Shown here: positions 3,392-53,630 of the stretch, one piece after another
How positions within the stretch are numbered: position 1 is the first letter of the stretch
Layout of the letters: every line of letters begins with the position of its first letter
Assembly (NCBI GenBank): GCA_021414205.1
Contig: JAIOOW010000002.1
Coordinates: forward strand, 281,062 to 338,170
DNA: 57,109 bases
Direction of reading: 5' to 3'
Origin: Candidatus Anderseniibacteriota bacterium
GTDB taxonomy: Bacteria; Patescibacteriota; Andersenbacteria; UBA10190
Notes under the pieces: model-generated
What the model was told of the DNA's origin: nothing
Database searches by the model: none
The model's input: only the letters and a program-made list of their open reading frames with translations
Program-made: the position numbers and the translations under genes

Positions 3392-3396
3392 ATCAA

Positions 3397-3873
3397 TTAT
3401 TTCACATCTTCATACAACTCATCTAATCCATAAAAATAGTCGCTATCGTCTATTCTAATTTTTCGAAGGTAATCTTGAATTTCCGGATTTTCGTGAGCAA
3501 GAATTATGCCATACGAGAATTCGCCATATAATAAATCTGGAGATATAAGATCACGATCGTATATTTCACTTAATCGATTATAAACTGCAAGGAATATATC
3601 GAAATCATCCTCAGTAAAACTTCCTCCATTTTTTTTCAGGAGCGGATTCTTTCTCTCAATCGCAACAGCAATTTGAAAGTTAGTACCCGTTCTAAGTTCT
3701 TGATCGATGTTTTGAATATACTTAAAGCCTATATCCGCTTGATTATTATGAAAGTCCTCAACTTGAAGATGAATAATAAAAAAGCTAATTATAACCGCGA
3801 TGGTTTGTAGTATAAGTAAAAAATCTCTTAAGATTCCTCTTTCCTTCCAAGCAACTTTTAGAAAGTTTCTCAC
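3397..3873 (-). CDS. Hypothetical membrane protein (DUF4760-like helical)
   Basis: N-terminal TM helix followed by a helical domain ending in ...YLRKIR...YFYGLDELY. Confidence 0.55.
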   Translation of the reverse strand: MRNFLKVAWKERGILRDFLLILQTIAVIISFFIIHLQVEDFHNNQADIGFKYIQNIDQELRTGTNFQIAVAIERKNPLLKKNGGSFTEDDFDIFLAVYNRLSEIYDRDLISPDLLYGEFSYGIILAHENPEIQDYLRKIRIDDSDYFYGLDELYEDVK

Positions 3874-3879
3874 AAGATT

Positions 3880-4305
3880 TTATAGCCACTCTGCCACACC
3901 CCCATGATGAGAGCAGGTCCCGTTTCGATGCGCACTAAAACTATAAGACCCATCGCGACATTGCGCGGAAGCACCAACGGGCACAGTTTCACTGTAAGCT
4001 GGCGAATGAACTTCGTTACCAGAACTATTTACATAATAATTACTGTTGCTTAATGGCGCATGAGTAGTTGGTTTCGGCGTTACTGGAACAGGAGTTACCG
4101 TCGCACGTACAATAGCAGTAGGCGAAGCAGTCGGACTAATACTTACTTCGGGACTAGCAATCTGATGCGCAAATGATTGAGTAGCCTGTATCGTTGGCAC
4201 GGCAACGGTTTGGACATTTTTAGTATTTGCGCTTTGATGCGACAAAATACCAATACCCAAAACTATGCCGGTAATCCCAAGTAAAATCTTACGAATACTC
4301 TTCAT
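3880..4305 (-). CDS. DUF3761-domain secreted protein
   Basis: Signal/TM, Pro/Thr-rich linker, C-terminal GASAQCRDGSYSFSAHRNGTCSHHGGVAEW. Confidence 0.85.
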   Translation of the reverse strand: MKSIRKILLGITGIVLGIGILSHQSANTKNVQTVAVPTIQATQSFAHQIASPEVSISPTASPTAIVRATVTPVPVTPKPTTHAPLSNSNYYVNSSGNEVHSPAYSETVPVGASAQCRDGSYSFSAHRNGTCSHHGGVAEWL

Positions 4306-4546
4306 AAGAAAAGTATGGCACCAACGCTTTAATAGTACAAAACCAGAACGTCAAAATATTGTGGCAAAATCTCCATAAAAATTATAAACGATTCCTCATC
4401 ACCAACCTCGCTATTATAACGCAGTCCAAATAGAACAAGTCCTAATCTCGGGAATTTTGCAATTCCAAATGTCCTTTTACCATTTTCAGAAACTATTCGA
4501 CCAACTACCCCCAATATTCCTCACTAGTTACAAATACATAAAATTA

Positions 4547-4723
4547 TTAAGTATAAAATACTGCGGAAGTATAAGTGCTAGCCATAGAATATATAAAAAA
4601 TCTATCTTCTTTCTGATAAATTCCGGGCTTAGAAAGATGCTTCAAGGATTCTTCGACGACAATTTCATTATTCTTTTGAAACACAGAATCGATAAAAATC
4701 TCTGGAATTGCATCTATGGCCAT
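4547..4723 (-). CDS. Small ORF (58 aa, MAIDAIPEIF...), possibly a fragment of a degraded gene continuing in 4329..4514
   Basis: Read manually. The ATG overlaps the end of 4714..5007; it is followed in another frame by a 61-codon ORF. Confidence 0.3.
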   Translation of the reverse strand: MAIDAIPEIFIDSVFQKNNEIVVEESLKHLSKPGIYQKEDRFFIYSMASTYTSAVFYT

Positions 4724-5007
4724 AAGATTTCTATATCAAAACCTCTCTTATTTAATCGCGCCACATGCTCCTTAATTGCATCTATTATATCCTTTTCCTG
4801 CCTTTGAATTACAACCGTGAACCCATTCTTAGTATCGAGAATATTAACAAGTGCACCGACTGCATCGCATGCGACTAATTCTGGTTCATACGGAATAGGA
4901 CAAACAACATCAAGCCGATACCTCCCTTTATCGATAATGGTGACTGAAGAATCATACAAACCTATTTTTATTGGAATAGTTGCTTCCATCTTATTTCTTC
5001 GTACCAT
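4714..5007 (-). CDS. Hypothetical protein
   Basis: 97-aa ORF overlapping the stop region of the upstream gene; globular composition. Confidence 0.55.
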   Translation of the reverse strand: MVRRNKMEATIPIKIGLYDSSVTIIDKGRYRLDVVCPIPYEPELVACDAVGALVNILDTKNGFTVVIQRQEKDIIDAIKEHVARLNKRGFDIEILWP

Positions 5008-5614
5008 ATTGCTTTACCATCGCACCAGCAACACGCGCTCGCGTTAAAAGAGTAGTATCTTTTTCTATTTTATTCTGCCAGAATTTGCGAATATCGTTCG
5101 TTATTGACTTTCCTGTTATGCAACGATATACGTCATCAATATGCATCTTGAGACTCACTTTTGACTCTACCGGGCTCGGTAACTGACATAGATGAATATC
5201 TTTACCGTTATAGATATGAAGAAGGCCCCCAGAAACCATAACTACCCCTTTACCGCGACCATCCGTTTTTACCGTCGGCCATAAATTGATCTTTTTAATC
5301 GGTTTCGGCTTCACGGTCGGGATTGGCGTAGGGGTAGCAAACAAACTTGCATAATCAAAGAGATAACTCGATGAGCTACTCGGACTAAGCTTTGTGCCTT
5401 CCTTTCCTGTATAGGGATTAACATTCCCATAGGTAGAGTAGTTATTAGAGAAAATACCATCAGGATTGCTACGATAATGTGGCGCTACATAAGTACCATT
5501 ACTTCGAAAATACCCCCTTACATGCACAGCCGCATTAGTTGGTAATGCTTGAGCAAATAAAAGAATCCCACTGAACAACAAGCTTATTAAGATCTTTTTA
5601 AAATTTATATACAT
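4991..5614 (-). CDS. Secreted hypothetical protein with VRGYxRxNGTYVxPHYRS motif
   Basis: Signal peptide followed by the widespread motif VHVRGYFRSNGTYVAPHYRS...GNVNPYTGKEGT. Confidence 0.75.
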   Translation of the reverse strand: MYINFKKILISLLFSGILLFAQALPTNAAVHVRGYFRSNGTYVAPHYRSNPDGIFSNNYSTYGNVNPYTGKEGTKLSPSSSSSYLFDYASLFATPTPIPTVKPKPIKKINLWPTVKTDGRGKGVVMVSGGLLHIYNGKDIHLCQLPSPVESKVSLKMHIDDVYRCITGKSITNDIRKFWQNKIEKDTTLLTRARVAGAMVKQYGTKK

Positions 5615-5654
5615 ATAATCAATCTAGCACACGGACAAGGAAGCGCCAGAATCG

Positions 5655-5683
5655 TTGACAACCCCACCCCACAGGCCTACGCT
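5655..5683 (+). promoter_or_regulatory. Sigma70-type promoter
   Basis: TTGACA-N17-TACGCT upstream of 5747. Confidence 0.6.
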
Positions 5684-5746
5684 TGCAGTGCGAGCTAGTA
5701 CAGACTATCTGAAACACGTTCCTGTCCTTTTCCAAAGGAGAACATA

Positions 5747-6427
5747 ATGTACAACGCTATTGGTATCGATGCCGACATTGGCTGCAATTGCGGAACGGGC
5801 ATGCCCATTATCGCAGAAAAGGACACTGGTAAATGGTGCTGGTGGCACGGAGAAAGAAAGACGCAAACATGGTTCCTGAAATCTCAGCTGAGCCATGAGG
5901 CCACGAAACACAACCTTCACTTCTTGCAAGAGCCTATCCCTTTCGAGCTGCAAGCATCAAAAAGAGCGCTATTTGCATCTACAGACTTCCTCGATTTTAA
6001 CCATGCCGTCCTCCCCGTATTTTTTAACGGATCGCGATGTAAGTGGGGGTGCCTCGCATCTCAACAACCTCCGATAATCGTGACATACGCTTCATGGAAA
6101 GCTGCAACCCGATGGCTTGATGACTTGGCACGCATGACCGTGCATACCATCGATCGTCGCCTCCAACATCCCTGGGGCGTCGCTCATGAAAACGACACGC
6201 TTCGGAACATGGCAGACATCGCCCTACGAATCGCAGAAGATACGAGCATTAAGCTGAACCTTCACGTTCGTATCTGCGCAGGCATGATGGAAAATACAGA
6301 AATCAATCAATATTTTTGCGACCATGTTGAAGGGGCATTCTGGAATATTGATTCCTGGGAATTCGAGAAGATGATGTATGCCTACATACAAAATATTCAG
6401 AACCAAGCACATTTCTTCCAACAATAG
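5747..6427 (+). CDS. Orphan hypothetical protein (226 aa)
   Basis: SD AAAGGAG; own promoter and terminator; no family recognised. Confidence 0.75.
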   Translation: MYNAIGIDADIGCNCGTGMPIIAEKDTGKWCWWHGERKTQTWFLKSQLSHEATKHNLHFLQEPIPFELQASKRALFASTDFLDFNHAVLPVFFNGSRCKWGCLASQQPPIIVTYASWKAATRWLDDLARMTVHTIDRRLQHPWGVAHENDTLRNMADIALRIAEDTSIKLNLHVRICAGMMENTEINQYFCDHVEGAFWNIDSWEFEKMMYAYIQNIQNQAHFFQQ

Positions 6428-6445
6428 CGGCTAAAAACCCCGCCA

Positions 6446-6472
6446 CCCCGCGCACATGCTCGGGGCTTTTTT
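6446..6472 (+). terminator. Intrinsic terminator, copy 1 of a 27-bp repeat
   Basis: CCCCGCGCACATGCTCGGGGCTTTTTT, a hairpin plus U-tract. Confidence 0.8.
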
Positions 6473-6473
6473 G

Positions 6474-6502
6474 TTGACAAAAAGCGATTAAAAGCCTAAC
6501 GT
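6474..6502 (+). promoter_or_regulatory. Sigma70-type promoter
   Basis: TTGACA-N17-TAACGT immediately after the terminator U-tract. Confidence 0.6.
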
Positions 6503-6547
6503 AGATATGCGTTTGATCGTTTCATCCCCCATTGAGGAGGCAGGAAG

Positions 6548-6910
6548 ATGCTGTACATCGTCCGGATTACCCAACCAATCAGCATGGAAATTCACGGGGC
6601 TCTTATGGTCGCCACGTACAGAATGTTGTCGAACATGGATCGGCGTCGAAGAATTTACTCTTCAACGTGCGAAGGCTGGGTTCAAACGAACCGCCGCGAA
6701 ATCGCCATCAGCAGCCTTCGAGGCGTTGCGTGCGAAGCAAAATTCGACTGCGACCTATACGAAGAACCGGTTACTGCAAAATTCATGATGCCATACGCCG
6801 GAATCGCCCAGCTCGAGCAAGCAAAATCTCTCGGACGGATCAGTTCGATCTTCGGCGTGCAGGAAGGAATCCCGAATCCGATCCGCGACTTGCTTCGCCG
6901 AGCTGCATAA
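6548..6910 (+). CDS. Orphan hypothetical protein (120 aa)
   Basis: SD-like GAGGAGG/AGGA upstream; flanked by a promoter and a terminator. Confidence 0.65.
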   Translation: MLYIVRITQPISMEIHGALMVATYRMLSNMDRRRRIYSSTCEGWVQTNRREIAISSLRGVACEAKFDCDLYEEPVTAKFMMPYAGIAQLEQAKSLGRISSIFGVQEGIPNPIRDLLRRAA

Positions 6911-6943
6911 ACACCTCACGATCCTCCGCCCCTTGTCCTTTAC

Positions 6944-6970
6944 CCCCGCGCACATGCTCGGGGCTTTTTT
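6944..6970 (+). terminator. Intrinsic terminator, copy 2 of the 27-bp repeat
   Basis: Identical to 6446..6472 and followed by ATTTCAAAAT. Confidence 0.8.
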
Positions 6971-6988
6971 ATTTCAAAATATTTTGGC

Positions 6989-7025
6989 AAAAAAAATCCT
7001 GCCTGGCATACCGCACAAGCAGGAA
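6989..7025 (-). terminator. Intrinsic terminator (minus strand)
   Basis: Minus strand reads TCCTGC...GCAGGA followed by a T-run, just downstream of 7056..7490. Confidence 0.6.
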
Positions 7026-7055
7026 AATAGATTTTCAGAAAAGTTGCAAGCTTGT

Positions 7056-7490
7056 TCAAAATACTTGCCCCTCCGCAATCATCTGATGCTCAGGAGGGTT
7101 CCCCACTCGATGCAGATTAATCACGCCATCCTGAGAACGAACCACTTTAAGTCCTTCGAGCAATACACTCAGCCGAAGCAACGTACCATCGTCTTGCAGA
7201 ATCACCACTCGCAAAAGCGGACTTGCTTCGAGACGCGAAACATCAAGTTCCACTGTCTCAATTCTTCCCGCAGGCAAAAATCGAAACATCACCGCAAGCC
7301 CTTGCACTTGCTCGACGTTCACAACCGAATCCGGCGCATCTTGAAGCAGTATTTTTGGAACATGGCGCTGCGATACCGCTTGCTGAATTCGAAGATGCCG
7401 CTTCCACTGATACTCAACACAGAACAAGAAAATAACGGTACTTATCACCAATACCTGCCTCGGCGAGATAGACCAAAAAATCCTTCTCAT
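7056..7490 (-). CDS. Orphan membrane-anchored hypothetical protein (144 aa)
   Basis: N-terminal hydrophobic segment; SD GGGGAG; upstream TTGCAA-N18-TACTGT and boxA-like CGCTCTTTACCA; downstream terminator. Confidence 0.65.
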   Translation of the reverse strand: MRRIFWSISPRQVLVISTVIFLFCVEYQWKRHLRIQQAVSQRHVPKILLQDAPDSVVNVEQVQGLAVMFRFLPAGRIETVELDVSRLEASPLLRVVILQDDGTLLRLSVLLEGLKVVRSQDGVINLHRVGNPPEHQMIAEGQVF

Positions 7491-7600
7491 GGCTCCCCCT
7501 CTCTTGAAAAACTCGCGACTTGGTAAAGAGCGTATAGGCTCCTATGAACAGTATTCTCCTTTTTTGCTTATTTGCAATGCATACCCCCAACTGAAGATTT

Positions 7601-8314
7601 TTAGATCGCCATGAGCACTTCTATCACAAGAAATTCTGTCTGTGTGAGCGCTGTTATAGATACCGCATCCACATCCCACACTCCATATCCGTCACGCGCA
7701 GCAAGCACCTGGTCACCCACTTGGATGCTACCGCTGATCACAAATATATACGCGCCATTTTCCGTTGCATGCAATGCATACGGTGTCGATTGCCCAACAT
7801 CAAAGTTCCCGAGATGCAACCACGCATTCTGATGAATCCATAATCCTTTGCCGTTTTGATCTGGTGAAATAATTTGCTGCAGCTTGTTGTGTCGATCTTC
7901 TACTTGCAATGCTTGTTGATCATATCTTGGTGCAACATTTTCTTGGTTCGGCAGAATCCAAATCTGCAATAGTTTCACTGGCGCATCTGCACTGTTATTA
8001 AACTCGCTATGCTCAACACCCATTCCTGCACTCATCACCTGCACCTCTCCTGCATGAATAACTTCTTTTGTTCCCATGCTGTCCGCATGCGCAAGCTCGC
8101 CCTCTAATGGAATCGTAATAATTTCCATATTGTCGTGAGGATGAGTTCCAAACCCTTTACCGCCCGCAATCGTATCGTCGTTTAATACGCGAAGCGCCCC
8201 AAACCCCATTCTTCGCTGGTCAAAATAGTTCGCAAAACTAAAAGAATGAAATGTAGAAAGCCATCCGTGCTCTGCATAACCCCTGGTATCTGCTTTGTGA
8301 AGTGTTGTTTGCAT
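7601..8314 (-). CDS. Pirin family protein (YhhW-like)
   Basis: HGWLSTFHSFSFA, GFGTHPHDNMEIIT, QVMSAGMGVEHSEFN, LLQIWILP. Confidence 0.95.
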   Translation of the reverse strand: MQTTLHKADTRGYAEHGWLSTFHSFSFANYFDQRRMGFGALRVLNDDTIAGGKGFGTHPHDNMEIITIPLEGELAHADSMGTKEVIHAGEVQVMSAGMGVEHSEFNNSADAPVKLLQIWILPNQENVAPRYDQQALQVEDRHNKLQQIISPDQNGKGLWIHQNAWLHLGNFDVGQSTPYALHATENGAYIFVISGSIQVGDQVLAARDGYGVWDVDAVSITALTQTEFLVIEVLMAI

Positions 8315-8323
8315 GTCGTACAA

Positions 8324-8743
8324 TTACATTCCTTTCGGTTGCAGGAGCGACACACGATTCCCTTCCGTATCTATAATAGATGCGAATAATCCAACACCGA
8401 GGATTTCATCCGGCTCGCCATTTTTCAAATGCCCGCCAATCACCTGTCCGCCTGCGGCCGCAACCTTCTTCATTGCATCCCGAATATCGTCTACAGACAC
8501 AACAATAGATGGGTGAAAAGATAACGGATCGTCGTTCTTTTTATAAAATCCTCCGTTAATAGCACCTGGATTTTTCGGCAACCCCATCGGGTCGTTCGGA
8601 TCTTTTTCTGCCGTTGTAACGGTTACATAGTCTCCCATTTCTTCACCAAGCTGATTCGTCTGCCAACCGAATGCTGTTTCATAAAACGTACGCATGCGCG
8701 CAATATCTTCTGCTGGCATTTCAAAATGGACTACTGGATTCAT
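8324..8743 (-). CDS. VOC/glyoxalase family protein
   Basis: MNPVVHFEMPA, FYETAFGW, PGAINGG, DTEGNRVSLLQ. Confidence 0.9.
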   Translation of the reverse strand: MNPVVHFEMPAEDIARMRTFYETAFGWQTNQLGEEMGDYVTVTTAEKDPNDPMGLPKNPGAINGGFYKKNDDPLSFHPSIVVSVDDIRDAMKKVAAAGGQVIGGHLKNGEPDEILGVGLFASIIDTEGNRVSLLQPKGM

Positions 8744-8957
8744 AGGTAAATAGTTTTAAAAAGTATAGCTCTAGTATTCAATTATTACAGCATTCTCGCA
8801 AGGATCATTCCTGAAAGGTGCATAAGTCTCGTAGTAATTCCTTGCCTCGGGGGTATCCTAGAAATAGCGATGCGTTCTTTAACAATCGCATACTAGCCAT
8901 ACATTTCCCTGGGCCATTCCGGCCCGCTTTCCCCCGTCCCTAGAAAGGACCTCCGCC

Positions 8958-9860
8958 ATGAATGCAGTGTTAGGTTCACCAAGCACAGCTGCCCCGAGCG
9001 TGGCACCTCGACGCTCACGAGTACGTCGATCACAAACAGCTATCGAGCAATTCGAGCAAAGACTTGATTATCGGTATCCGCTGTTTGGAACAATCGCACG
9101 CCGTCGACGCATCATTTCCGCACGACATATCGGCAACGTCGCCACCTGGATTACAAGCACGGTAAAAAGCAAAGTGACATCCGCCAACATGCGACACGTA
9201 ATCGACGTGTGTGCATCACAGCATCCAACGTGGTTCGACAACTTGCTATTCGTGCGAATGGAACAACGACTGCATGGTCTTGAGCCAGGAATCCGCCTGT
9301 TCGTGGAAACACGAAACTTTGACCAGATCCCCGACCCGATGATTCCACGAAATGAACGCAACAAATTCACCGCGGCAATCATGAACGAACCCAATCGGTC
9401 GTTTGCATATCTCGAGCCGCTGTGGATCACAGTCGATGGCAAACAAGTGGGTGCAACAGTCGAAGATTTCATCATGTTCTCCCGCGGCCAAATGATGCTG
9501 CTCAGAAACGCAATCGGAGCATCCAACCGGCAACTGCTGTTCAGCAAAGTTGACGCAGCAATTGAAATGGTTGCAACCCTTGCGGCGCTCAGCGTGATTG
9601 TCCCTACCAAATTTGCGTTCGACGCTGTCGTACGCATGGGCAGAACCGCATCTCACATGTACACGGAAGGGCTGGAACTCGGGCGAGATCTCTTGAGATC
9701 ATCCACCGAATATCTCCATCCACTCAACTTGCGCACCATCGATCCAGGAACATACACGATGCTGTTTGCATCCGATCCGTTCATCGTGTTCGGAACTCCT
9801 GAGATGAGCGAGCTGTTCGGCGACGAACTCCCGCTGGCACTTGTAGCTGATTGGGAATAG
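8958..9860 (+). CDS. Orphan hypothetical protein (300 aa)
   Basis: Long ORF, SD GAAAGGA, boxA-like CGTTCTTTAACA in the leader, terminator downstream. Confidence 0.8.
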   Translation: MNAVLGSPSTAAPSVAPRRSRVRRSQTAIEQFEQRLDYRYPLFGTIARRRRIISARHIGNVATWITSTVKSKVTSANMRHVIDVCASQHPTWFDNLLFVRMEQRLHGLEPGIRLFVETRNFDQIPDPMIPRNERNKFTAAIMNEPNRSFAYLEPLWITVDGKQVGATVEDFIMFSRGQMMLLRNAIGASNRQLLFSKVDAAIEMVATLAALSVIVPTKFAFDAVVRMGRTASHMYTEGLELGRDLLRSSTEYLHPLNLRTIDPGTYTMLFASDPFIVFGTPEMSELFGDELPLALVADWE

Positions 9861-9896
9861 CCCATTCAACGAATCAAAACAACACAATCCAACCTC

Positions 9897-9944
9897 AGCC
9901 CGAAGCACACCGCTCCGGGCTTTTTTATTTCAACATCCCTGCAA
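9897..9944 (+). terminator. Intrinsic terminator plus conserved 24-bp tail
   Basis: AGCCCGAAGC-acacc-GCTCCGGGCT hairpin followed by TTTTTTATTTCAACATCCCTGCAA. Confidence 0.75.
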
Positions 9945-10050
9945 ACGCTTTAGAATATGTATCACTTGACATCATTAAAAATAATAATCATTATACAGCC
10001 AAGGTAACACAAACGCTCATTTCAACCTTCCATCAACTAAAGGGCAAAAC

Positions 10051-10467
10051 ATGCCAACACTCGAAATCGTCGAACAAACGTACGATGCGTACGAGCTCAT
10101 GGTTCTCCAAGCCCATGTCGACTTTTACCGCCTTATACCTGAAGCACGTTCCCTGACGGGATTCAGTATGCGCCACCAGCTTCTCTGCGCAAACGCTTGC
10201 GAGCGACTGGCCAAACGAGGAATGCTAACGATACAAACAATCCTTAGCGAGATCGTTTGGAAAACAATCGATATTGATCCCAGCGATGAGCTGTATCAGC
10301 TTGCACTGACTCACGGACAATTCGAACGAGTAGATCTCACCAATCCCCCGCTAATTCGATTCATAACGGAAACAAAATTCCCTGGTTTCCAAGCTCGGCT
10401 TACCGAGGAATCCGTTCCCGAAGTTGTCAGGTTATTCAAAGCTGGAATTATCAAAAAGAACGACTGA
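10051..10467 (+). CDS. Orphan hypothetical protein (138 aa)
   Basis: TTGACA at 9966, boxA-like CGCTCATTTCAA at 10014, AAAGGG upstream of the ATG, terminator downstream. Confidence 0.75.
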   Translation: MPTLEIVEQTYDAYELMVLQAHVDFYRLIPEARSLTGFSMRHQLLCANACERLAKRGMLTIQTILSEIVWKTIDIDPSDELYQLALTHGQFERVDLTNPPLIRFITETKFPGFQARLTEESVPEVVRLFKAGIIKKND

Positions 10468-10492
10468 CAAACAAGCATCGCCACCCCTTACC

Positions 10493-10530
10493 GCTCCGCG
10501 CATTTGCACGGAGCTTTTTATTTCAACATC
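10493..10530 (+). terminator. Intrinsic terminator plus conserved tail
   Basis: GCTCCGCGCATTTGCACGGAGC followed by TTTTTATTTCAACATC. Confidence 0.75.
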
Positions 10531-10540
10531 TCTACCAATA

Positions 10541-10569
10541 TTGACATCATAATGAAGGAAAGGTATAAC
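10541..10569 (+). promoter_or_regulatory. Sigma70-type promoter
   Basis: TTGACA-N17-TATAAC, followed by boxA-like CGCTCCTTTCCAAT (10577..10590). Confidence 0.6.
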
Positions 10570-10622
10570 CATAAGTCGCTCCTTTCCAATCCACATCACT
10601 TCGCTAGTAGAGGAAATATCCC

Positions 10623-11159
10623 ATGTCGGCAATCCGTATCCGTCCTGCACGCGTCAGCGATCTCCCCGTCCTATTTACGATGATTCGAGAAATGGCCCAA
10701 TTCCTGAACCATGACCACGTCTTCATAGTCACCCAGCAACAGTTAAAAAAACATCTTTTCGATAAGCCCATCATCCAATGCATGATTGCGGAATTAACGG
10801 AAAGCGATGCGCCTGTCGGCTACATGGCATACTACAACACCTTTTCAACATTCCGAGGCACTCCAGGGATTCATCTGGAAGATATCTTCGTACGAGATGG
10901 CTTTCGCGAAAAAAAGGTCGGAAGATCCCTCATTCACGCAATCTGCCAAATCGCGAAGAAGCAAGGCTGTTCACGTATTCAATGGGAGGCGCCTGCAGAC
11001 AACGATAGAGCAAATCGTTTTTACAACAGCTTAGATGTTCCTACTGTCGGCGGCTGGATCGTATATCGGATCACGAACGCCTTGAACGATTTTGCTGACT
11101 CACGAGCAATTTACGAATTCGAAGAACCGCAGACACCGGCTTCGCAAAAGAAGAAGTAG
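10623..11159 (+). CDS. GNAT N-acetyltransferase (spermidine/diamine acetyltransferase-like)
   Basis: IRPARVSD, YYNTFSTFRGTPGIHLEDIFVRDGFREKKVGRSLI, ANRFYNSL. Confidence 0.85.
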   Translation: MSAIRIRPARVSDLPVLFTMIREMAQFLNHDHVFIVTQQQLKKHLFDKPIIQCMIAELTESDAPVGYMAYYNTFSTFRGTPGIHLEDIFVRDGFREKKVGRSLIHAICQIAKKQGCSRIQWEAPADNDRANRFYNSLDVPTVGGWIVYRITNALNDFADSRAIYEFEEPQTPASQKKK

Positions 11160-11173
11160 TAATAATGACGCCG

Positions 11174-11222
11174 TCTCTCAGAACACAGTTCTGGGAGATT
11201 TTTTATTTCAACATCCCTGCAA
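11174..11222 (+). terminator. Intrinsic terminator plus conserved 24-bp tail
   Basis: TCTCTCAGAAC-aca-GTTCTGGGAGA followed by TTTTTTATTTCAACATCCCTGCAA, identical to 9921..9944. Confidence 0.75.
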
Positions 11223-11264
11223 GCGTCTTTGCCGGCCTGCGATAATGCGTTGCAAAACGCCTCA

Positions 11265-11486
11265 TTATTTGCGAATCTCCAGCAGCTTTTTGGTACTTGT
11301 TCGCCCGGTTACAAGCCGTATATTCGTCGTCGGTACGCCATAATACTGCGCGACCAGCTTTATAATCGCCCAATTCGCCCGCCCCTTTTCGGGCGCCTCC
11401 TTCACATGCACAACCAAATTCTCCTCGTCGATTTTCTCAACCCGACTCTCCCGCGCATGAACCTTCGCCTTAATCGTGATGTACAT
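11265..11486 (-). CDS. DUF167 (YggU-like) protein
   Basis: VHVKEAPEKGRANWAIIKLVAQYYGV...GRTSTKKLLEI. Confidence 0.9.
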   Translation of the reverse strand: MYITIKAKVHARESRVEKIDEENLVVHVKEAPEKGRANWAIIKLVAQYYGVPTTNIRLVTGRTSTKKLLEIRK

Positions 11487-11572
11487 AATTATATCTTACT
11501 GCAGTTTCTAATCGCCTGCCCCACAAGAACATCCCTCAAAAAATAGATTTTTCGACTAGCGCACAATCATAC

Positions 11573-11606
11573 AAATAAAAACGCGTGGGCCAATGGCACC
11601 ACGCGC
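11573..11606 (-). terminator. Intrinsic terminator (minus strand)
   Basis: Minus strand GCGCGTGGTGCCATTGGCCCACGCGT followed by TTTTATTT. Confidence 0.75.
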
Positions 11607-11623
11607 ATACGCACACAGACTAC

Positions 11624-11941
11624 CTACAATCGAACCCCAAAGCGCTTCGCCTTGCCGTTTGTAAGTCGCCTGCTGCGAGTTGATTTCTGCTTATCCCTGG
11701 ATAGCAACCTGGCCAAATCATCGCGCCTTTGAGCAAGAATCCTCATACTGTTCACAAACTTACTCCTGAGCACATCAGCTTCCGGTGCATTTAAGAATTC
11801 TGTCACAGTACGAACGAGAGTATCGGCAGGCCCACGAATATTCCCGATCGTTTTTTGGGTTGCATGTTCCAATTTATGGATTACATCATCGCAAGAGAAT
11901 GTGAGCTCGGAAATCTGTGAGTAATCAACCTGAGTCTTCAC
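11624..11941 (-). CDS. Orphan hypothetical protein (about 105 aa, basic C-terminus)
   Basis: GTG start at 11941 with SD TAGGAG; upstream TTGACA-N18-TACAGT and GGTTCTTTATA. Confidence 0.65.
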   Translation of the reverse strand: MKTQVDYSQISELTFSCDDVIHKLEHATQKTIGNIRGPADTLVRTVTEFLNAPEADVLRSKFVNSMRILAQRRDDLARLLSRDKQKSTRSRRLTNGKAKRFGVRL

Positions 11942-12028
11942 GTGATCTCTCCTATAAAGAACCTTCGAAAACTTTCCGACCAAAGATACTGTATGCCTCC
12001 ATTCGCATACATGTCAATATCAGTATGC

Positions 12029-12068
12029 GATGTGCAAATAAAAAACACGGCATCGTTTGATACCGTGC
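12029..12068 (-). terminator. Intrinsic terminator plus variant conserved tail
   Basis: Minus strand GCACGGTATC-aaac-GATGCCGTG followed by TTTTTTATTTGCACATC. Confidence 0.75.
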
Positions 12069-12078
12069 GACTGCATCC

Positions 12079-12894
12079 TCACTCGAACGCAGGATTGGTT
12101 GCGGCTTCCAGTTTCACATATTCGCGAAACTGCTTACCTGACATTTGGAGCACTTGCCCGCGAAGCGCCAGAGAAGCAATCATGCGCGTCGTCATGATTT
12201 GCTGCCGCATAAGGAGAGGAACTTGATCCTGCCTCATGCACATCTCCAACTTCTGCTGAAGCTGTTGCGACATAACCTGTCTCATATGCATTCCCGCAGG
12301 CTCGCGCGCAATCCGCTGCATCGTTGCATCGTACTCCCTGCGATCGGCTTCATCCGTAAGCTGTGGGCGGCAATCCTCTCTGCAAAGATTGTACCCCCAC
12401 ACCATATCGAAGAATTCACCGATAGCCTCCACGTTCGCATCCGCCATCGGACCGACCGTATTCACGAGCGTTCGAGAACGTTCGATATCGCGACCGTCCA
12501 CTCGAAAACGCTGGCGAGTGGTTGTTTTAAGTAACGGCTGCCCGCGGAAATCAATCTGCTTGCCACGAAGCGCGAATTGAGATCGCGTTTCATTGAACGT
12601 AGATTCCACTTTTGGGAAGTCGAGCATCGTAATCTCGATCGCCAGACGGCCATCCCGGCCGTTGTGATCCGGAATGATCTCGACGTACTTCAGATCTGGG
12701 TCAACGGGAAAATGATCGCGGCGGCATACGTATACATGTGGTGAAATGCGCGCGAACATAGCATCGCTTGCCACAACGGCAGACGCAACATCTGACCACA
12801 TCGGAATATCGATCGTAAAATTGCCATCCACAAACGCGAAGCAATTTTCGATCATCGCCTTCCACGGCCGGCTTTCATACATTGGACGACTCAT
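12079..12894 (-). CDS. Orphan protein (271 aa) with C-terminal sigma54 Region-I-like segment
   Basis: SD GGAG and upstream TTGACA; C-terminus QQIMTTRMIASL...VLQMSGKQFREYVKLEAATNPAFE. Confidence 0.75.
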   Translation of the reverse strand: MSRPMYESRPWKAMIENCFAFVDGNFTIDIPMWSDVASAVVASDAMFARISPHVYVCRRDHFPVDPDLKYVEIIPDHNGRDGRLAIEITMLDFPKVESTFNETRSQFALRGKQIDFRGQPLLKTTTRQRFRVDGRDIERSRTLVNTVGPMADANVEAIGEFFDMVWGYNLCREDCRPQLTDEADRREYDATMQRIAREPAGMHMRQVMSQQLQQKLEMCMRQDQVPLLMRQQIMTTRMIASLALRGQVLQMSGKQFREYVKLEAATNPAFE

Positions 12895-12982
12895 GAAAAT
12901 GCTCCGCTTACTAGAGGGATATTGTAAAGGGTGCTCGTTCTTATGTACTTTTATTTATAGTATTTGTCAAGATATACGGCAC

Positions 12983-39579: not shown

Positions 39580-40389
39580 TTACGTCAGCTGGTATGCGTC
39601 GCCATCACGAGCAATGATGACTTGAAGCCTGCCGGCCGTCGTAGCACCTCTTGCAAAATCTTTAGCAGCTTCGAAACACTGCTCCGGAACATGATTAAGG
39701 ATGAGTCGTCGCACACCCACTCCTCCGACTACTCCGATCCACGAGATGGCGGTATCAAAATCAATGTGTCCGCCTGCGGTTTTCGTTGCTCCTGCCGAAA
39801 GCAAGATCGTATTGCAATCCAGCGCTTCCTGAAACAGCTTTGGCTGCCCATCCAATGGAGCGCAAGCATCGCCGGCGTACAAGAAGGATCGGCCGTCAAG
39901 CACCACTTCGTACGCAACCGATTCATGACCAGGGATGTGCCGAACAGGGATCATGCGCATATTCGCACTGCATCCACTGATGGCAAATGGCATGCTGTCT
40001 TGAATTTCCTCCACCACCATTCCTGGATCTCGAACGGCATCAGCACAATATACGGAGAACAGCGTACCAATACGCTGCTCAAGACCGCTTGGCCCGCGAA
40101 GCGTCAACTTGTTCGGCGTACCATCGAAGTCCTTCGCTTCAAGCGTCCGATGTACCAGAAACGGAATCAGATCGCTCATGTGATCCGGATGGAAATGCGT
40201 GATCCACACTTCATCGATCTCAAGCGGCGAAATGCCGTAGTGCGCCATCTGATGCATCGCGCCGAATCCGCAATCGAGCAGCATATTTTTTGTACCCACC
40301 GTCAGCACAAAGCATGCCGGATGCCGCTCACGCGTCGTCTTCCAATCTCCCGCTCCCAACACTTTTAACTTGAATGTACTATCAGACAT
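39580..40389 (-). CDS. Metallo-beta-lactamase-fold hydrolase (RNase Z-like)
   Basis: LKVLGAG, LLDCGFG, THFHPDH, YAGD, LILNH; SD AAGGAGG and upstream TTGACA-N17-TATGGT. Confidence 0.85.
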   Translation of the reverse strand: MSDSTFKLKVLGAGDWKTTRERHPACFVLTVGTKNMLLDCGFGAMHQMAHYGISPLEIDEVWITHFHPDHMSDLIPFLVHRTLEAKDFDGTPNKLTLRGPSGLEQRIGTLFSVYCADAVRDPGMVVEEIQDSMPFAISGCSANMRMIPVRHIPGHESVAYEVVLDGRSFLYAGDACAPLDGQPKLFQEALDCNTILLSAGATKTAGGHIDFDTAISWIGVVGGVGVRRLILNHVPEQCFEAAKDFARGATTAGRLQVIIARDGDAYQLT

Positions 40390-40500
40390 GAAAACCTCCT
40401 TCAGTGCCTATCAAAACAACCGCACAAACCCGAATGCACCATAATGCATGATTCCGTTTTTGTCAATGTTCTCCTTGCCATTTTTTTTATAGCCTCATAG

Positions 40501-42499: not shown

Positions 42500-42628
42500 A
42501 ACAATACCGTTTTAGTATATCATGCAGCAGATATTGACAAAATAAAAAATATGCATAACTATATGCAAACGGTTGGCATGTTGCCAACTTGTTTGTTGTT
42601 TTTACCCGAATACGAGGAGATTCGACCA

Positions 42629-43630
42629 ATGGGCAGACCCGTAACACTGTTTACTGGACAATGGGGAGACCTGGAGTTGGAGGAACTGTGTAAGAAAGCC
42701 AAGGACTGGGGCTACGACGGCCTGGAACTGGCTTGCTGGGGGAAGGTTCCCCACTTCGACGTTCAGCGAGCATTGAGCGAGCCTGATTACTGCATGAAAA
42801 TCCATGCGCTGCTCGGACGATACGGCCTGAAGGTATTTGCGATCTCTGCACACCTGGTTGGGCAAGCCACACTGGATCACATCGACGCACGGCATAAAGA
42901 AATCTTGCCCGATCACGTATGGGGCAATGGCGATCCGGCAGGCGTCAACGAACGAGCGTGCCAGGAAATGAAAGACACGGCCCGCGCCGCACAGAAATTG
43001 GGCGTCAAGGTTGTGAACGGCTTCACCGGATCGAGCATCTGGCACATGGTTTACGACTTTCCGCCAACGCCCAAATCGATGTACGATGCCGGCTTTGAAC
43101 TGCTGGCGGAACGATGGAACCCAATCCTAGACGTGTTCCAGAGATGCGGTGTGAAGTTCGCGCTCGAAGTTCACCCGACCGAAATTGCGTTCGACATCTA
43201 CACCGCGGAACGAGCACTGGCTGCGCTGAATGATCGCGAAGAATTCGGATTCAATTTCGATCCGAGTCATCTCATTCATCAGGGAATCGACCCTGCCGAA
43301 TTCATCCGCTACTTCCCGAATCGCATCTATCACGTCCACATGAAGGACGCGAAGGTGACACTCAACGGACGATCCGGAATCTTGGCAAGCCACCTGTCGT
43401 TCGGTGATCCGCGCCGCGGCTGGGACTTCCGCAGCATGGGCCGCGGAGGAGTCAACTTCGAAGAAATCATCCGCGCCCTCAACGCCGCCAAGTACTCAGG
43501 ACCCTTGTCAGTTGAATGGGAAGATTCCGGCATGGATCGCGAGCACGGCGCCCGCGAATCGTGCAAGGTCGTCAAGGAACTCGACTTCCCATCTTCAGAT
43601 CGAGCATTCGACGCCGCATTTGCGGAATAG
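42629..43630 (+). CDS. Sugar phosphate isomerase/epimerase (xylose isomerase-like TIM barrel)
   Basis: [48 protein letters not shown]; SD GAGGAG. Confidence 0.92.
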
Positions 43631-43661
43631 AATCTTCAATACAACAACGCCGCTCTTTACC

Positions 43662-43704
43662 TCCGCAGGAATCCACTTCATTGTGAATCCTGCGGATTTT
43701 TTAT
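43662..43704 (+). terminator. Intrinsic terminator
   Basis: TCCGCAGGA...TCCTGCGGA followed by TTTTTTATT. Confidence 0.75.
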
Positions 43705-46893: not shown

Positions 46894-47910
46894 ATGGTAT
46901 CAGCACAAGAGCTAGAAAATATACGCGTGCCTACATTTTCGATTTCCACATCGCTTATCATCAATGCTGCACGCGAAAAAGGACTCAAGTTCGAACCGCT
47001 CCCCGAGCGAGCATTCCGCATATCCAAAGGCGTAACCTCCCATTACTTCAAAGGGACGAGCTTCCCATGCAATAACATGGTCGCATCTCAACTTTCGAAT
47101 AATAAATATTTTCTGCGAAAAGTGTTAAAAAAACACAACATTCCCGCACCCAAGACAATTCGGCTTCAGTATGCATCCCAATGGGAAAAAGCAATCGCCG
47201 GATCGCTAAAATTTCCACTGGTCGTAAAACCGACATCAGCCTCGCATGCACACGGATCGTCCATGAATATTATTTCTGCCGACGAATTGCGCCGAGCAGT
47301 ACGCCGAGCATTTGATTATATGAAAAAGAATAATGCTGGAACACGAGTGCTCGTAGAAGAATTTTTTGAGGGTAACGATCTTCGCTTCTTTGTTATTGGA
47401 AATAAAGTTGTATCCGTAGTACAACGGGAACCTGCGTATGTCATCGGCGATGGCGTAAACAAGATTCGAAAACTTATCACAGACTTCAATCAAGAATGGC
47501 GCTCGCCTATTAAGTACGACTTACCTCTATGCCCAATCCCCATAGATACCGAAACTGCTCGACGCCTGCATAGGCAAAAAAAGACGCTTAATTCTATTCC
47601 GAAAAAAGGAGAAAAAGTTACGCTGCGATGGAACGCAAACGTGAGTACCGGCGGGCGCGCCATTGATGTAACAGATATCGTGCATCCAAGCCTCAAAAAA
47701 ATTGCTATTCAAATAGCGCATATCGCAAAGCTTGAAATTACTGGGGTAGATATTCTATGTAAAGATATTACTTCAAAAGACACTTCCGCAAAAAATATTT
47801 GCGTACTGGAAACAAACGACTCTCCCGGTATCGACATCCATCACTTTCCGTTTGAAGGCAAGGGCAAAAATATATCCTCAATGATCTTAGATTATATATT
47901 TGACATTTAG
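46894..47910 (+). CDS. Stand-alone ATP-grasp ligase (cyanophycin synthetase/GshAB ATP-grasp-like)
   Basis: FPLVVKP, VLVEEFFEGNDLR, REPAYVIGDG, ANVSTGG, GVDIL, ETNDSPG; promoter TTTACA-N17-TATAGT at 46794..46822. Confidence 0.85.
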   Translation: MVSAQELENIRVPTFSISTSLIINAAREKGLKFEPLPERAFRISKGVTSHYFKGTSFPCNNMVASQLSNNKYFLRKVLKKHNIPAPKTIRLQYASQWEKAIAGSLKFPLVVKPTSASHAHGSSMNIISADELRRAVRRAFDYMKKNNAGTRVLVEEFFEGNDLRFFVIGNKVVSVVQREPAYVIGDGVNKIRKLITDFNQEWRSPIKYDLPLCPIPIDTETARRLHRQKKTLNSIPKKGEKVTLRWNANVSTGGRAIDVTDIVHPSLKKIAIQIAHIAKLEITGVDILCKDITSKDTSAKNICVLETNDSPGIDIHHFPFEGKGKNISSMILDYIFDI

Positions 47911-47986
47911 TATAAATAGTGCTATAATTGAACGTTGCTGAAATTCAGATATTTTCACCTTCCACCTGCCCCTTGAAAGGAAATCC

Positions 47987-48301
47987 GTGAACGAAAACCC
48001 TGCCCTCCAGTCGCTGGTAGTAATGTGCGTAATCATGGCCGGGTTTGGGATCATAATCAAACATGACCCATTCTGGCTCATCCGACCTCTCGGAAGATAC
48101 GCTGGCAAACTTGCAAAACGCTTTATCGGTGCGTGCTACAAATTTTCAAAGAGATCGACTGTGTCGCTTTGGAAAATTATGACAAACCAGCATAAAGCAA
48201 TCATTACGAGAATCGTTTGCGGTATTGCAATGGTTCCGTTAGCCATAACAACCGCACTATTATTCCTCCCTGCTGACCTGATTGGCAGCGGAAAGAAGTA
48301 A
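47987..48301 (+). CDS. Orphan small membrane protein (104 aa)
   Basis: GTG start with SD GAAAGGA, two hydrophobic helices, downstream terminator at 48334..48367. Confidence 0.65.
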   Translation: MNENPALQSLVVMCVIMAGFGIIIKHDPFWLIRPLGRYAGKLAKRFIGACYKFSKRSTVSLWKIMTNQHKAIITRIVCGIAMVPLAITTALLFLPADLIGSGKK

Positions 48302-48333
48302 GAGGGACACTCGCATGTTACCTCTCGCACACA

Positions 48334-48418
48334 TCGCCCGATGTTTACATCTGGGCGATTTTTTATGTAAAAAAAGAACCCGTCCTGTCACTCACGGTGA
48401 GCAACAGGTACGGGTTTA
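48334..48418. terminator. Back-to-back intrinsic terminators
   Basis: Plus strand ATCGCCC...GGGCGAT plus T-run; minus strand long hairpin AACCCGT...ACGGGTT plus CTTTTTTT. Confidence 0.75.
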
Positions 48419-52837: not shown

Positions 52838-53530
52838 TTAAAATTTCTGAGGTTCAGGAATGGGGTTGGTTAAGTATTGAGCAAGCTCTTCTTGCAATTG
52901 CTCAATAGTTTTGTCGTTGCTACTTACAATCACGCCATTGTATAGGCCCGACTGACGATAGCGGAGCTGGTTCTGATAAAAGCCCGCAACACGATCCTCC
53001 ACTTCCTCTGATGGGATGTTTGAACGATTGATAATTCGCTGCCGAACTGTCTCTTTGCAATCACACACTACAAGCAGCTTAAGAACGCGTTTATCACGCT
53101 CCTGCATAAACTTTTCCAAGTCCGGCACCTTGTCATGCACGAGGTGCATAATCGACGGAACTTCTTGCAGAATCGCCCGTTCGAGATCCACCCTTCTGGT
53201 TGCATATCGATCGTGGCCTGCGTTTTGTGGTCGCCTCTGACCCTGCACCGACCATAAGAAGTGGCCGTTGAACAGCAACGTATTAAACTCGCGATCCGTA
53301 AGGAATTCATACTCCTCATCCTGTCCCGGTCCTCGTGATTCGCGAGTAGTGCAACTTTTGATCAACGCAGTGCCAGGAGAAAGCCCCTGAAGCGCCTTCA
53401 CCAAAAAATTCTTTCCGGTTCCAGAGTTTCCCGAAACGCTAATGAGATGGATATCAGAATGAATCACCAAGGATTCACTATGCTCCATACAGCCAGTAAG
53501 GCTATGAGAAGGAACCACAGCCGAAATCAT
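52838..53530 (-). CDS. Guanylate kinase-like protein
   Basis: SVSGNSGTGKN, SCTTRESR, EYEFLTDREF, RYAT; SD TAGGAG; boxA-like AGTTCTTTACCCAAC and promoter TTGCTT-N16-TAGAAT upstream. Confidence 0.8.
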   Translation of the reverse strand: MISAVVPSHSLTGCMEHSESLVIHSDIHLISVSGNSGTGKNFLVKALQGLSPGTALIKSCTTRESRGPGQDEEYEFLTDREFNTLLFNGHFLWSVQGQRRPQNAGHDRYATRRVDLERAILQEVPSIMHLVHDKVPDLEKFMQERDKRVLKLLVVCDCKETVRQRIINRSNIPSEEVEDRVAGFYQNQLRYRQSGLYNGVIVSSNDKTIEQLQEELAQYLTNPIPEPQKF

Positions 53531-53630
53531 CGTAACATCTCCTATTTTCCGTTGGGTAAAGAACTCCTGAAACAACCGCCTGAAACATTCTATGCAATGA
53601 CAGAAAAAAAGCAATAGTCGATTTTTACGC

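Follow-up and report, generated by a model that had tools for sequence, protein, structure and literature searches.

Lineage-restricted genes with self-contained expression signals in an Andersenbacteria genome whose native genes appear to start without leaders

The stretch of DNA analysed here, 57,109 nucleotides (nt) from Candidatus Anderseniibacteriota bacterium (contig JAIOOW010000002.1, positions 281,062 to 338,170; the window, in whose coordinates all positions are given), contains between 5655 and 12975 a tract of eight genes of 105-300 codons that each resemble a complete expression cassette: 5747(+), 6548(+), 7490(-), 8958(+), 10051(+), 10623(+), 11941(-) and 12894(-). A first, sequence-only reading of the window had proposed that these genes belong to a distinct class. 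This proposal holds across the genome, where a Shine-Dalgarno (SD) motif, a promoter, a terminator, monocistronic layout, high G+C content at third codon positions (GC3), a low hexamer score, orphan status and restricted distribution co-occur, and where about a tenth of the genes form a fast-changing, lineage-restricted class that lies between core operons. We consider it probable that the genome combines two expression architectures, both served by its own polymerase and ribosome: a core of genes transcribed without leaders, and a flexible pool of insulated, SD-led cassettes.

The genome comprises 913,537 bp in 4 contigs and is rated 100% complete. A simple hexamer-based finder gave 921 genes, each of which was scored for SD, promoter, terminator, spacing, GC3 and hexamer typicality. 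Genes with a native hexamer score below 0.2 and a GC3 of at least 0.45 were set apart as the atypical, or cassette, class (97 of 921 genes), and an SD-led class of 105 genes was defined by signal alone. An SD was counted when it spanned at least 5 nt, with 796 internal codons as the control. Terminators were called genome-wide with a finder cruder than the folding of hairpins gene by gene; it caught six of the eight terminators in the tract, and it marked 126 of the 921 genes compared with 3 of 295 coding controls. Two congeners were reassembled from pieces, namely the nearest relative, G002 (901,852 bp), and G013 of the same genus (860,739 bp). The distribution of families was counted over 41 genomes of the order, and strain variation was read from contigs of the metagenome runs X2, X5 and X6, the strains in X2 and X5 being 85-95% alike. 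An RNA run of the likely source sample (X7, 10 million letters) yielded no contig on the stretch.

Expression signals are unevenly spread over this gene set, with SD, terminator, promoter and a boxA-like leader motif all enriched in the atypical class over other genes. An SD precedes 39% of the 97 atypical genes and 9% of the 824 others, a terminator follows 45% versus 10%, a promoter is found at 40% versus 11%, and 64% versus 10% are laid out as monocistronic units, so that each feature is 4-6 times as common in the class. The four signals are mutually associated (odds ratios (ORs) of 3-8, P from 1e-6 to 1e-19) and tend to accompany high GC3 and low hexamer scores. When only genes with an upstream spacer of at least 60 nt are compared, an SD is present at 31 of 69 atypical and 45 of 248 other genes (OR 3.7, P = 1.2e-5), with no significant difference at a control offset. 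An SD of at least 5 nt is rare overall, at just 112 of 921 genes against 58 of the 796 internal control codons. The exact -35 hexamer TTGACA, which is depleted about 2.8-fold in this genome (195 copies against approximately 544 expected from base composition), occurs in the upstream spacer of 29 of 71 atypical and 26 of 288 typical genes (OR 7, P = 1.6e-9). In the cassette class it mostly lies 74-95 nt before the ATG, which implies a leader of about 40-60 nt with a median of 49 nt. GC3 is 0.461 in the SD-led class against 0.413 (P = 6e-11); for the atypical class it is 0.51 against 0.41 in other genes, a comparison that is circular because the class is partly defined by GC3, and one that must be held against our interpretation. 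Within the window, 6 of 16 atypical proteins belong to a Pfam family, compared with 37 of 48 others (P = 0.006). Members of the class are spread singly or in small groups across both large contigs, and the pattern recurs in G002 and, more weakly and in part, in G013.

What sets the class apart is that native genes begin in another way. A TAnnnT box beginning exactly at position -12 is found in 142 of 823 typical and 6 of 97 atypical genes, over a background of about 20 per position, and a -10 box is present at 293 of 824 native and 10 of 97 atypical genes, with 109 of 824 at a control offset. Enrichment of G at -14 and T at -15 in native genes fits an extended -10 element, and a TG extension of the box is seen at 26% versus 8%. 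In 26 genes a -35 hexamer matching at least five of six positions is spaced 16-18 nt from the box, where control spacings give 4-5 such genes; for a perfect hexamer the counts are nine and none. Box and SD exclude one another, in that an SD accompanies 7 of 303 boxed and 105 of 618 unboxed genes (OR 0.12, P = 1e-12). The full arrangement TTGACA-N17-TAnnnT-N6-ATG occurs in 12 native genes, and the window genes pyk, eno and bcp share it. A box (often TGnTAnnnT) that ends 6 nt before the ATG, as many native genes have, would place the transcription start at the start codon and give a leaderless mRNA; most native genes appear to start with neither a leader nor a ribosome-binding site. The base at -1 is T in 542 of 824 native genes (66%) and 24 of 97 cassette-class genes (25%), with 26% before internal in-frame ATGs; this T may be an element either of the transcription start site or of translation context. 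The housekeeping genes of the window (bcp, pyk, eno and the ABC genes) had been described as carrying AT-rich leaders without an SD. They do lack an SD, and what had been taken for leaders is most likely no leader at all.

That the cassette genes could be read by this organism's own machinery follows from its 16S rRNA, inspection of which had been called for at the outset. Its 3' end reads GGATCACCTCCTTT and retains the anti-SD CCUCC (DNA CCTCC), so that the organism's own machinery suffices for the cassettes. In some Parcubacteria the anti-SD motif is detected less often, according to the relevant passage of PMC9297842. The rRNA promoter of this organism is TTGACA-N17-TATACT. A Rho_RNA_bind domain was not found in the genome, and a NusB family protein is encoded.

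The eight genes of the tract are set out in Table 1, and the description of them as monocistronic units, most with promoter, boxA-like motif, purine-rich SD and terminator of their own, is confirmed. Spacers of 88-214 nt set each gene apart from its neighbours. Downstream of each of the eight stand a hairpin (-12.3 to -19.1 kcal/mol) and a UUUUU(U)AUUU tract; z-scores against shuffled sequences are -2.7 or lower for six of these hairpins, with -2.5 for 6548 and -1.5 for 5747, and six of the eight are called by the genome-wide finder (binomial P for six or more, 1.4e-4). Exact TTGACA hexamers in the right orientation precede six of the eight (at 5655, 6474, 9966, 10541, 12017(-) and 12970(-)), that is six per 7.4 kb against 1.58 expected from the genome density (P = 0.006). 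The two genes that lack the hexamer are 7490(-), with TTGCAA-N16-AATACT in its place, and 8958, with no convincing -35. The SDs range from GAGGAGG and AAAGGAG down to GGAG, with merely AAAGGG at 10051, and a pyrimidine-rich, boxA-like motif of the form TGCwCnTTTmC is seen in the leaders. At 11941(-), the position of the -10 would put an alternative TTG start (11983) at or before the transcript start. Six of the eight proteins have no Pfam, NCBIfam or PHROGs family. The native genes within the tract are of the other type: the glyoxalase- and pirin-family genes abut, have native composition and have no terminator of their own.

Table 1. Features of the cassette tract and of the related loci elsewhere in the window (aa, amino acids; ORF, open reading frame)
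Feature	Span	Strand	Promoter	Leader motif and SD	ORF and product	Terminator and other
Cassette 1	5655..6472	+	-35 TTGACA 5655-5660; -10 TACGCT 5678-5683	motif TGTCCTTTTCC 5723-5733; SD AAAGGAG 5734-5740	5747-6427, 226 aa, no family	hairpin 6446-6465, U-tract to 6472
Cassette 2	6474..6970	+	-35 TTGACA 6474-6479; -10 TAACGT 6497-6502	motif TGATCGTTTC; SD GAGGAGG 6535-6541	6548-6910, 120 aa, no family	hairpin 6944-6963, U-tract
Cassette 3	6989..7575	-	weak, TTGCAA-N16-AATACT	boxA-like GCTCTTTACCAA 7520-7531; SD GAGGGGGAG	7056-7490, 144 aa, no family	hairpin 6997-7024, U-tract 6989-6996
Native pair within tract	7601..8743	-			glyoxalase-family 8324-8743; pirin-family 7601-8323	
Cassette 4	8874..9927	+	no convincing -35	boxA-like GTTCTTTAACAA 8874-8885; SD AAAGGA 8944-8949	8958-9860, 300-aa orphan	hairpin 9897-9921, U-tract
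Cassette 5	9966..10519	+	-35 TTGACA 9966-9971; -10 CATTAT 9989-9994	motif CGCTCATTTC; weak SD AAAGGG 10039-10044	10051-10467, 138 aa, no family	hairpin 10493-10514, U-tract
Cassette 6	10541..11222	+	-35 TTGACA 10541-10546; -10 TATAAC 10564-10569	motif GCTCCTTTCCAA 10578-10589; SD GAGGA 10610-10614	10623-11159, GNAT acetyltransferase	hairpin 11173-11199, U-tract; 21-nt repeat 11202-11222
Native DUF167 (YggU) gene	11265..11486	-	leaderless-type start: TAAGAT, 6 nt, ATG; T at -1			
Cassette 7	11575..12017	-	-35 TTGACA 12012-12017; -10 TACAGT 11988-11993	motif GTTCTTTATAGG adjoining SD AGGAG 11949-11953	11624-11941, GTG start, 105 aa, no family	hairpin 11581-11606, U-tract 11575-11580
Cassette 8	12039..12970	-	-35 TTGACA 12965-12970	motif CCCTTTACAATAT 12919-12931; SD GGAG 12902-12905	12079-12894, 271 aa, C-terminal sigma-54 region-I-like	hairpin 12045-12068, U-tract 12039-12044
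MBL-fold hydrolase cassette	39580..40471	-	TTGACA (40466)	SD AAGGAGGT	39580-40389	terminator
TIM-barrel (AP_endonuc_2) cassette	42534..43700	+	TTGACA (42534)	SD AGGAG	42629-43630, GC3 0.65	hairpin and U-tract past stop codon
104-aa orphan cassette	47900..48371	+	perfect TTGACA-N17-TATAAT (47900)	SD AAAGGA	47987-48301	hairpin, U-tract
Guanylate-kinase-like gene, design in part	52838..53630	-		boxA-like GTTCTTTACCCA; SD AGGAG	52838-53530	

We propose the following account of these observations. The tract would be a strain-variable stretch in which eight lineage-restricted, GC3-rich and mostly orphan genes sit between a few native ones, each cassette consisting of a sigma-70-type promoter with a strong TTGACA, a leader of 40-60 nt with a boxA-like motif, an SD, the ORF and an intrinsic terminator. 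Native mRNAs would be leaderless and need no SD, and cassette mRNAs would pair their SD with the CCUCC that the 16S rRNA has kept in its tail. Given that no Rho was found, the hairpin terminators would block readthrough into and from neighbouring genes. Turnover would proceed by gain, loss or allele replacement of whole promoter-to-terminator units; the same family may thus stand in other contexts of other genera with the same design, and in several slots the expression frame would be kept as the protein diverges or a distant allele replaces it.

Several observations weigh against this account. Among the 105 SD-led genes, 41 are conserved and of native composition, so an SD also occurs outside the cassette class. 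No statistical association links T at -1 to the -10 box (OR 1.0), and the T is present even at overlapping genes, and -35 support is weak for spacers shorter than 30 nt (33 versus 21-23); the native signature may therefore partly be a context for translation without an SD. Leaderless starts, leader lengths and termination are all deduced from sequence, the gene calls and starts come from a crude finder whose errors in the window include the three loci 10623, 11941(-) and 48864(-), and the genome-wide comparison took in two congeners only, G002 and G013. Lenient scans of the tract, moreover, found seven promoter sites against 10.9 +/- 3.3 in shuffled sequence and 12 terminator sites against 8.3 +/- 3.2. 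As these scans do not rise above the shuffles, the signal consists in exact hexamers, strong hairpins and their placement relative to the ORFs.

The lenient scans would also suit an artefact, in which spurious ORFs happen to lie near promoter- and terminator-like strings, as would the errors of the gene finder and the low confidence of the ESM Atlas models for two of the orphans. This explanation is largely refuted, and we regard it as highly improbable. The ORFs span 105-300 codons, show ratios of nonsynonymous to synonymous substitution rates (dN/dS) of 0.13-0.27 with third-position changes dominant, and have full-length homologs in other genomes; the N-domain of the AlphaFold2 model of 12894(-) is confident; the associations carry P values of 1e-5 to 1e-23 and replicate in G002. 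Across the class, the median dN/dS against G002 is 0.131, compared with 0.053 for other genes (P = 2e-10); at values well below 1, the class evolves faster and under selection that is relaxed yet clearly purifying. The synonymous rate (dS) of the 62 class genes shared with G002 is 0.63, not significantly different from the 0.72 of the core, which indicates that these are real genes, resident and inherited since the split from G002.

The distribution of the class is nevertheless restricted. A homolog is found in G002 for 67 of 97 atypical and 708 of 824 other genes, with a median protein identity of 88.8% versus 92.9%, and in G013 for 21 of 97 versus 601 of 824 (OR 0.10, P = 8e-23). Comparison of cassette content among strains, which the sequence-only reading had called for, shows that whole cassettes differ. 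In G002, 5747, 6548, 7490(-), 11941(-) and 12894(-) are kept in synteny; the genes for pirin and GNAT are missing, as are 8958 and 10051, the last two being absent from G013 as well; the same slots in G002 hold other SD-led genes, one of them with a GTTCTTTGAAAGGAGGAG leader, plus an extra block of 8 kb. Metagenome contigs from X2 and X5 cover 8958, which is also seen in X6, and join 10468 directly to 11265, skipping the GNAT cassette; a minor contig joins 9924 to 11265 on a short anchor. Similarity to G002 and to the X2 and X5 strains starts at 5651-5653, 2-4 nt before the -35 of cassette 1. Of the native genes in the tract, DUF167 is 93% identical in G002, and the glyoxalase/pirin pair has DNA matches in several congeners.

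In the order as a whole, the 12894 family occurs in 4 of the 41 genomes, 8958 in 2 and 6548 in 5. Copies of the 12894 family in two of these genomes have other neighbours: that in G039 is flanked by zwf and gnd and is equipped with a TTGACA promoter, a leader, GGAGG and a terminator of its own, and that in G024 has the same design in yet another context, both with a leader of 45-60 nt, a purine-rich ribosome-binding site and a hairpin with a U-tract. In a collection of 5.8 billion protein clusters, 8958 is represented by 4, 12894(-) by 5 and the GNAT protein by 8. The GNAT homologs are 57-73% identical, and all homologs found are metagenome proteins or come from congeners, the one named match being Candidatus Andersenbacteria.

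Promoters, leaders and terminators of the cassettes are often better conserved than the proteins, and identity over the 100 nt upstream exceeds protein identity more often in atypical (43) than in typical genes (230; P = 2e-4). For 5747, the upstream 100 nt with promoter and leader are 97% identical to G002 at a protein identity of 45.6% and a dS of 1.7. The nearly identical segment, 5653-5810 (about 2750-2900 on the G002 locus L010), takes in the promoter, the leader and the first 20 or so codons and is followed by an abrupt drop, a mosaic suggestive of one allele having replaced another while the expression frame stayed in place. The guanylate-kinase-like protein 53530(-) is 41.7% identical in G002 with a dS of 2.2, and the 100 nt upstream are 81% identical; both genes look like older alleles behind a conserved promoter and leader. 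A homolog of 6548 in G007, at the same locus and with 35% protein identity, keeps TTGACA, a leader motif (TTTGATCGTTTCA) and a terminator with a TTTTTTATTTCAAAA tail, which points to divergence in place. The G002 ortholog of 7490(-) is 60% identical, and the leader of 11941(-) is about 95% conserved there.

Two further features of the tract are repeated sequences. The terminators of cassettes 1 and 2 (6446 and 6944) are 97% identical, and an identical 21-nt sequence, TTTATTTCAACATCCCTGCAA, follows two different terminator hairpins (9924-9944 and 11202-11222), with a diverged third copy at 10517-10537. This repeat partly survives in G002 (L010 6111-6148), beside unrelated genes, and it may be a recombination or boundary sequence, the minor contig joint described above beginning at 9924. 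A dispersed repeat family was considered and rejected, since the near-identical terminators and the 21-nt repeat are confined to the tract and the sole other match to the latter in the genome has four mismatches and lies inside coding sequence at window position 28285.

These comparisons bear on where the cassettes come from. The sequence-only reading had offered an acquired cassette pool as one possibility, and among the explanations it listed this one fits best, given the patchy distribution, the strain differences and the occurrence in other contexts. Two qualifications apply: two-thirds of the class are common to G002 at core-like dS, and the homologs found are in congeners and metagenomes. 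The pool is therefore a resident one with fast turnover and not a set of fresh imports. The opposite case, recent import from higher-GC, SD-using donors whose signals were kept and whose composition has been incompletely ameliorated, seems to us rather unlikely. It would account for the GC3 of 0.51 against 0.41 and the low native hexamer score; for the absence of 76 of the 97 class genes from G013 and the patchy distribution across the order; for the lack of GNAT, 8958 and 10051 in the nearest relative; and for the dS of 1.7-2.2 at 5747 and 53530(-), against a genome median of 0.72, as for incoming alleles. Higher-GC kin are available as possible donors, in that the median GC3 of G013 is 0.56, compared with 0.41-0.44 in this genome (G000) and G002, and overlaps that of the cassette genes. 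The dS of the 62 shared genes is, however, that of the core; the GC3 of the older, G002-shared genes (0.49) has not fallen below that of the unique ones (0.50), so that no trend of amelioration is seen; the homologs are metagenome proteins and those of congeners, including the named Candidatus Andersenbacteria; in G007 the homolog of 6548 occupies the corresponding locus; the 64 window proteins scanned include no integrase or recombinase family, and an Rfam search of the window gave no tRNA; and the class is scattered over both large contigs and not gathered in a few islands. Searches for a donor with GNAT in genome contigs, and with the 8958 and 12894 families in metagenome contigs, returned nothing; with the 12894 family in genome contigs they returned the G002 locus alone.

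A second question is whether the shared leader does more than carry an SD. TCTTTA is the most strand-asymmetric hexamer in the leaders (23 versus 5), and a Gibbs search of them yields TGCwCnTTTmC, a weak motif of about 5 bits. Matches to the 12-position E. coli boxA consensus with at most three mismatches are found in 13 of 69 atypical and 12 of 248 typical leaders (OR 4.6, P = 5e-4; antisense, 4 of 69), and with at most two in 4 of 69 and 0 of 248. The motif is retained in the leaders of the G007, G039 and G002 homologs despite the divergence of the proteins. Pairing of the pyrimidine-rich motif with the SD, which would sequester the latter, is not supported (pairing probability 0.56 versus 0.55 in shuffles, P = 0.56, n = 31), and Rfam has no match in the window, whether to a leader RNA family or to a tRNA.

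It is possible, if somewhat doubtful, that the class is a co-regulated regulon (a stage-specific one in the sequence-only reading) in which the shared leader of about 50 nt, with its boxA-like TGCTCTTTAC-type motif near the SD, acts as a joint switch, either through NusB/S10 binding that represses or permits translation or through modulation of SD-dependent versus leaderless initiation. Such control is compatible with the two-architecture account and would add a layer to it. The TCTTTA asymmetry, the Gibbs motif, the enrichment of boxA matches in class leaders, the retention of the motif in three other genomes and the presence of NusB all point this way. The motif is, on the other hand, weak, and most class leaders have no copy of it when judged by the a-priori consensus. 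The 500 nt before the 16S gene contain no copy with at most three mismatches, the one match near the rRNA (TCCCTTTAACAC) being located in the spacer that follows this gene. The leader motif may also be no more than a plain U-rich enhancer, of the S1 type, ahead of the SD. A precedent exists in suhB, where, as the available part of the report describes, a BoxA 6 nt from the SD represses translation via Nus factors (Baniulyte et al., bioRxiv 10.1101/091223). The suhB mechanism ends in Rho-dependent termination, and this half of it cannot apply here, as Rho was not found.

The sequence-only reading had also raised the thought that the cassettes might be formatted for a host, that is, that they encode effectors whose signals are meant for host RNA polymerase and ribosomes. 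Their canonical bacterial signals do differ from those of most native genes, and CPR (candidate phyla radiation) bacteria are generally held to be symbionts, as stated in the part of PMC6851277 consulted. The cargo includes 12894(-), whose last 70 or so residues match Sigma54_AID (sigma-54 region I) above the Pfam cut-off in a genome in which no sigma-54 DNA-binding domain was found. Its family is small (the five clusters, all of about 272 aa). The AlphaFold2 model (predicted local distance difference test score, pLDDT, 67.9) has no match in the PDB at E <= 0.001, the weaker rows (YbjN, type III chaperones, MotA) being not interpretable, and the ESM Atlas gave no usable match for 5747 or 12894(-), both models being of low confidence. 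A search with PF00158 as a sign of sigma-54 activators was discarded, as it matches all 14 control genomes, archaea included. We regard a host-directed role as very improbable, and the idea of host formatting is not supported: the 16S rRNA keeps its anti-SD, the rRNA promoter and the leaderless native promoters share the TTGACA and TAnnnT hexamers with the cassettes, 41 conserved native genes are SD-led too, the tract has no gene for DNA transfer or mobility, and nothing ties the genes to any host. That the genes are under purifying selection within the lineage speaks neither for nor against such a role.

Phage origin was likewise considered and set aside, the PHROGs matches being generic only (acetyltransferase, hydrolase, guanylate kinase). 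For 8958, the database copy is 200 aa long (67% coverage), and more distant homologs, 287-295 aa in length, align with 92-93% of the 300 aa read here. The start that public annotation gives this SD-led gene is probably some 100 codons too far downstream.

The design recurs elsewhere in the window. Of the six further loci to which it had been ascribed in full or in part, 40389(-), 42629, 47987, 48864(-) and 53530(-) fit (Table 1 lists all but 48864(-)). The sixth, 38562, does not, as it lacks an SD, has native composition and carries TTGACT-N18-TACAAT 8 nt before its ATG, a leaderless-type start.

The cassette tract abuts a second variable block of opposite composition, in which seven tightly packed genes of low GC3 (0.26-0.36), one of them DUF3761, occupy 2900-5614 on the minus strand and have no homolog in G002 or G013; in the X2 and X5 strains, 4096-5651 is replaced by 261 other letters. 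Near the far end of the window, a 1023-aa AcrB-family transporter of native composition (53631-56702, minus strand) gave no tblastn match in G002 or G013.

The CPR comprises a large share of bacterial diversity, almost all of it uncultured and rich in orphan genes, and a rule that separates leaderless native genes from SD-led cassettes would improve the calling of gene starts, as at 8958. The same rule would be a cheap means of picking out, in any CPR bin, the accessory genes, which are probably related to interaction; it would point to translational control that can be tested, through SD-dependent versus leaderless initiation with a boxA-like leader; and it would show genes turning over as entire expression units where no mobility genes can be recognised. 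A broader version, in which two channels run throughout the CPR, with a leaderless, SD-free core and conserved-frame SD/boxA slots whose cargo is exchanged or diversifies fast, under a global switch such as NusB/S10 or initiation mode that turns the whole accessory set on or off in response, for example, to host contact, is speculative and on present evidence unlikely; were it true, the split would be an organising principle at the level of a phylum and not a local island.

Comparison with known systems helps to place the cassettes. Classical genomic islands and prophages were rejected as an explanation, as the class genes are scattered, the window has no Rfam RNA gene and no phage-specific PHROGs match was obtained. 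Islands undergoing amelioration in the sense of Lawrence and Ochman share with the class its atypical composition and codon usage and its restricted distribution; in contrast, we see no amelioration between young and old members, a core-like dS and no mobility genes. Integron arrays have an adjacent integrase and promoterless cassettes in one orientation that end in attC. The tract resembles them in that its genes are small, mostly orphan and variable between strains, with an imperfect inverted repeat after every one, and in the short boundary repeats at 9924 and 11202; it differs in that promoters belong to the individual cassettes, which are found on both strands, and in that the inverted repeats are G+C-rich hairpins with U-tracts. 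An integron was rejected because no recombinase family occurs among the 64 window proteins, although no dedicated attC model was run. Phage morons and flexible genomic islets each consist of one accessory gene that brings along its promoter and terminator and is inserted between conserved genes. They are alike to the cassettes as self-contained, strain-variable units of atypical composition between conserved neighbours, but the cassettes have no prophage context, occur chromosome-wide, and in many cases are stably inherited with a conserved frame and diverging cargo.

As to the leader, the likeness to E. coli suhB, as far as the accessible part of that report goes, lies in a motif a few to tens of nt upstream of the SD in the 5' leader and in the presence of NusB; unlike suhB, the match is loose, and the candidate sites stand on dozens of unrelated accessory genes and not on a gene for a Nus factor. 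For the split between start types, the parts of the literature on leaderless transcription or Shine-Dalgarno use in Patescibacteria or the candidate phyla radiation that we consulted contain no description. The closest counterpart is group C of GeneMarkS-2 (Actinobacteria, Deinococcus-Thermus), for which the corresponding part of Lomsadze et al. 2018 (PMC6028130) reports frequent leaderless transcription, dual start models and models for atypical genes, and in whose text on this group no CPR genome is named. When this genome was examined for the marks of dual starts, we found a Pribnow-type -10 near the start codon, a promoter-like box and an SD that matches the organism's own 16S tail; the box near the start codon is also what GeneMarkS-2 relies on to identify leaderless transcription in group C. 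In common with group C as described there, it has a Pribnow box 6-8 nt before many starts, an SD on the leadered rest and an atypical minority. Unlike in group C, the start types here sort by gene age and composition: SD, leader and terminator mark the lineage-restricted, GC3-rich genes, and native genes, including those with tiny spacers, would be leaderless or otherwise begin without an SD.

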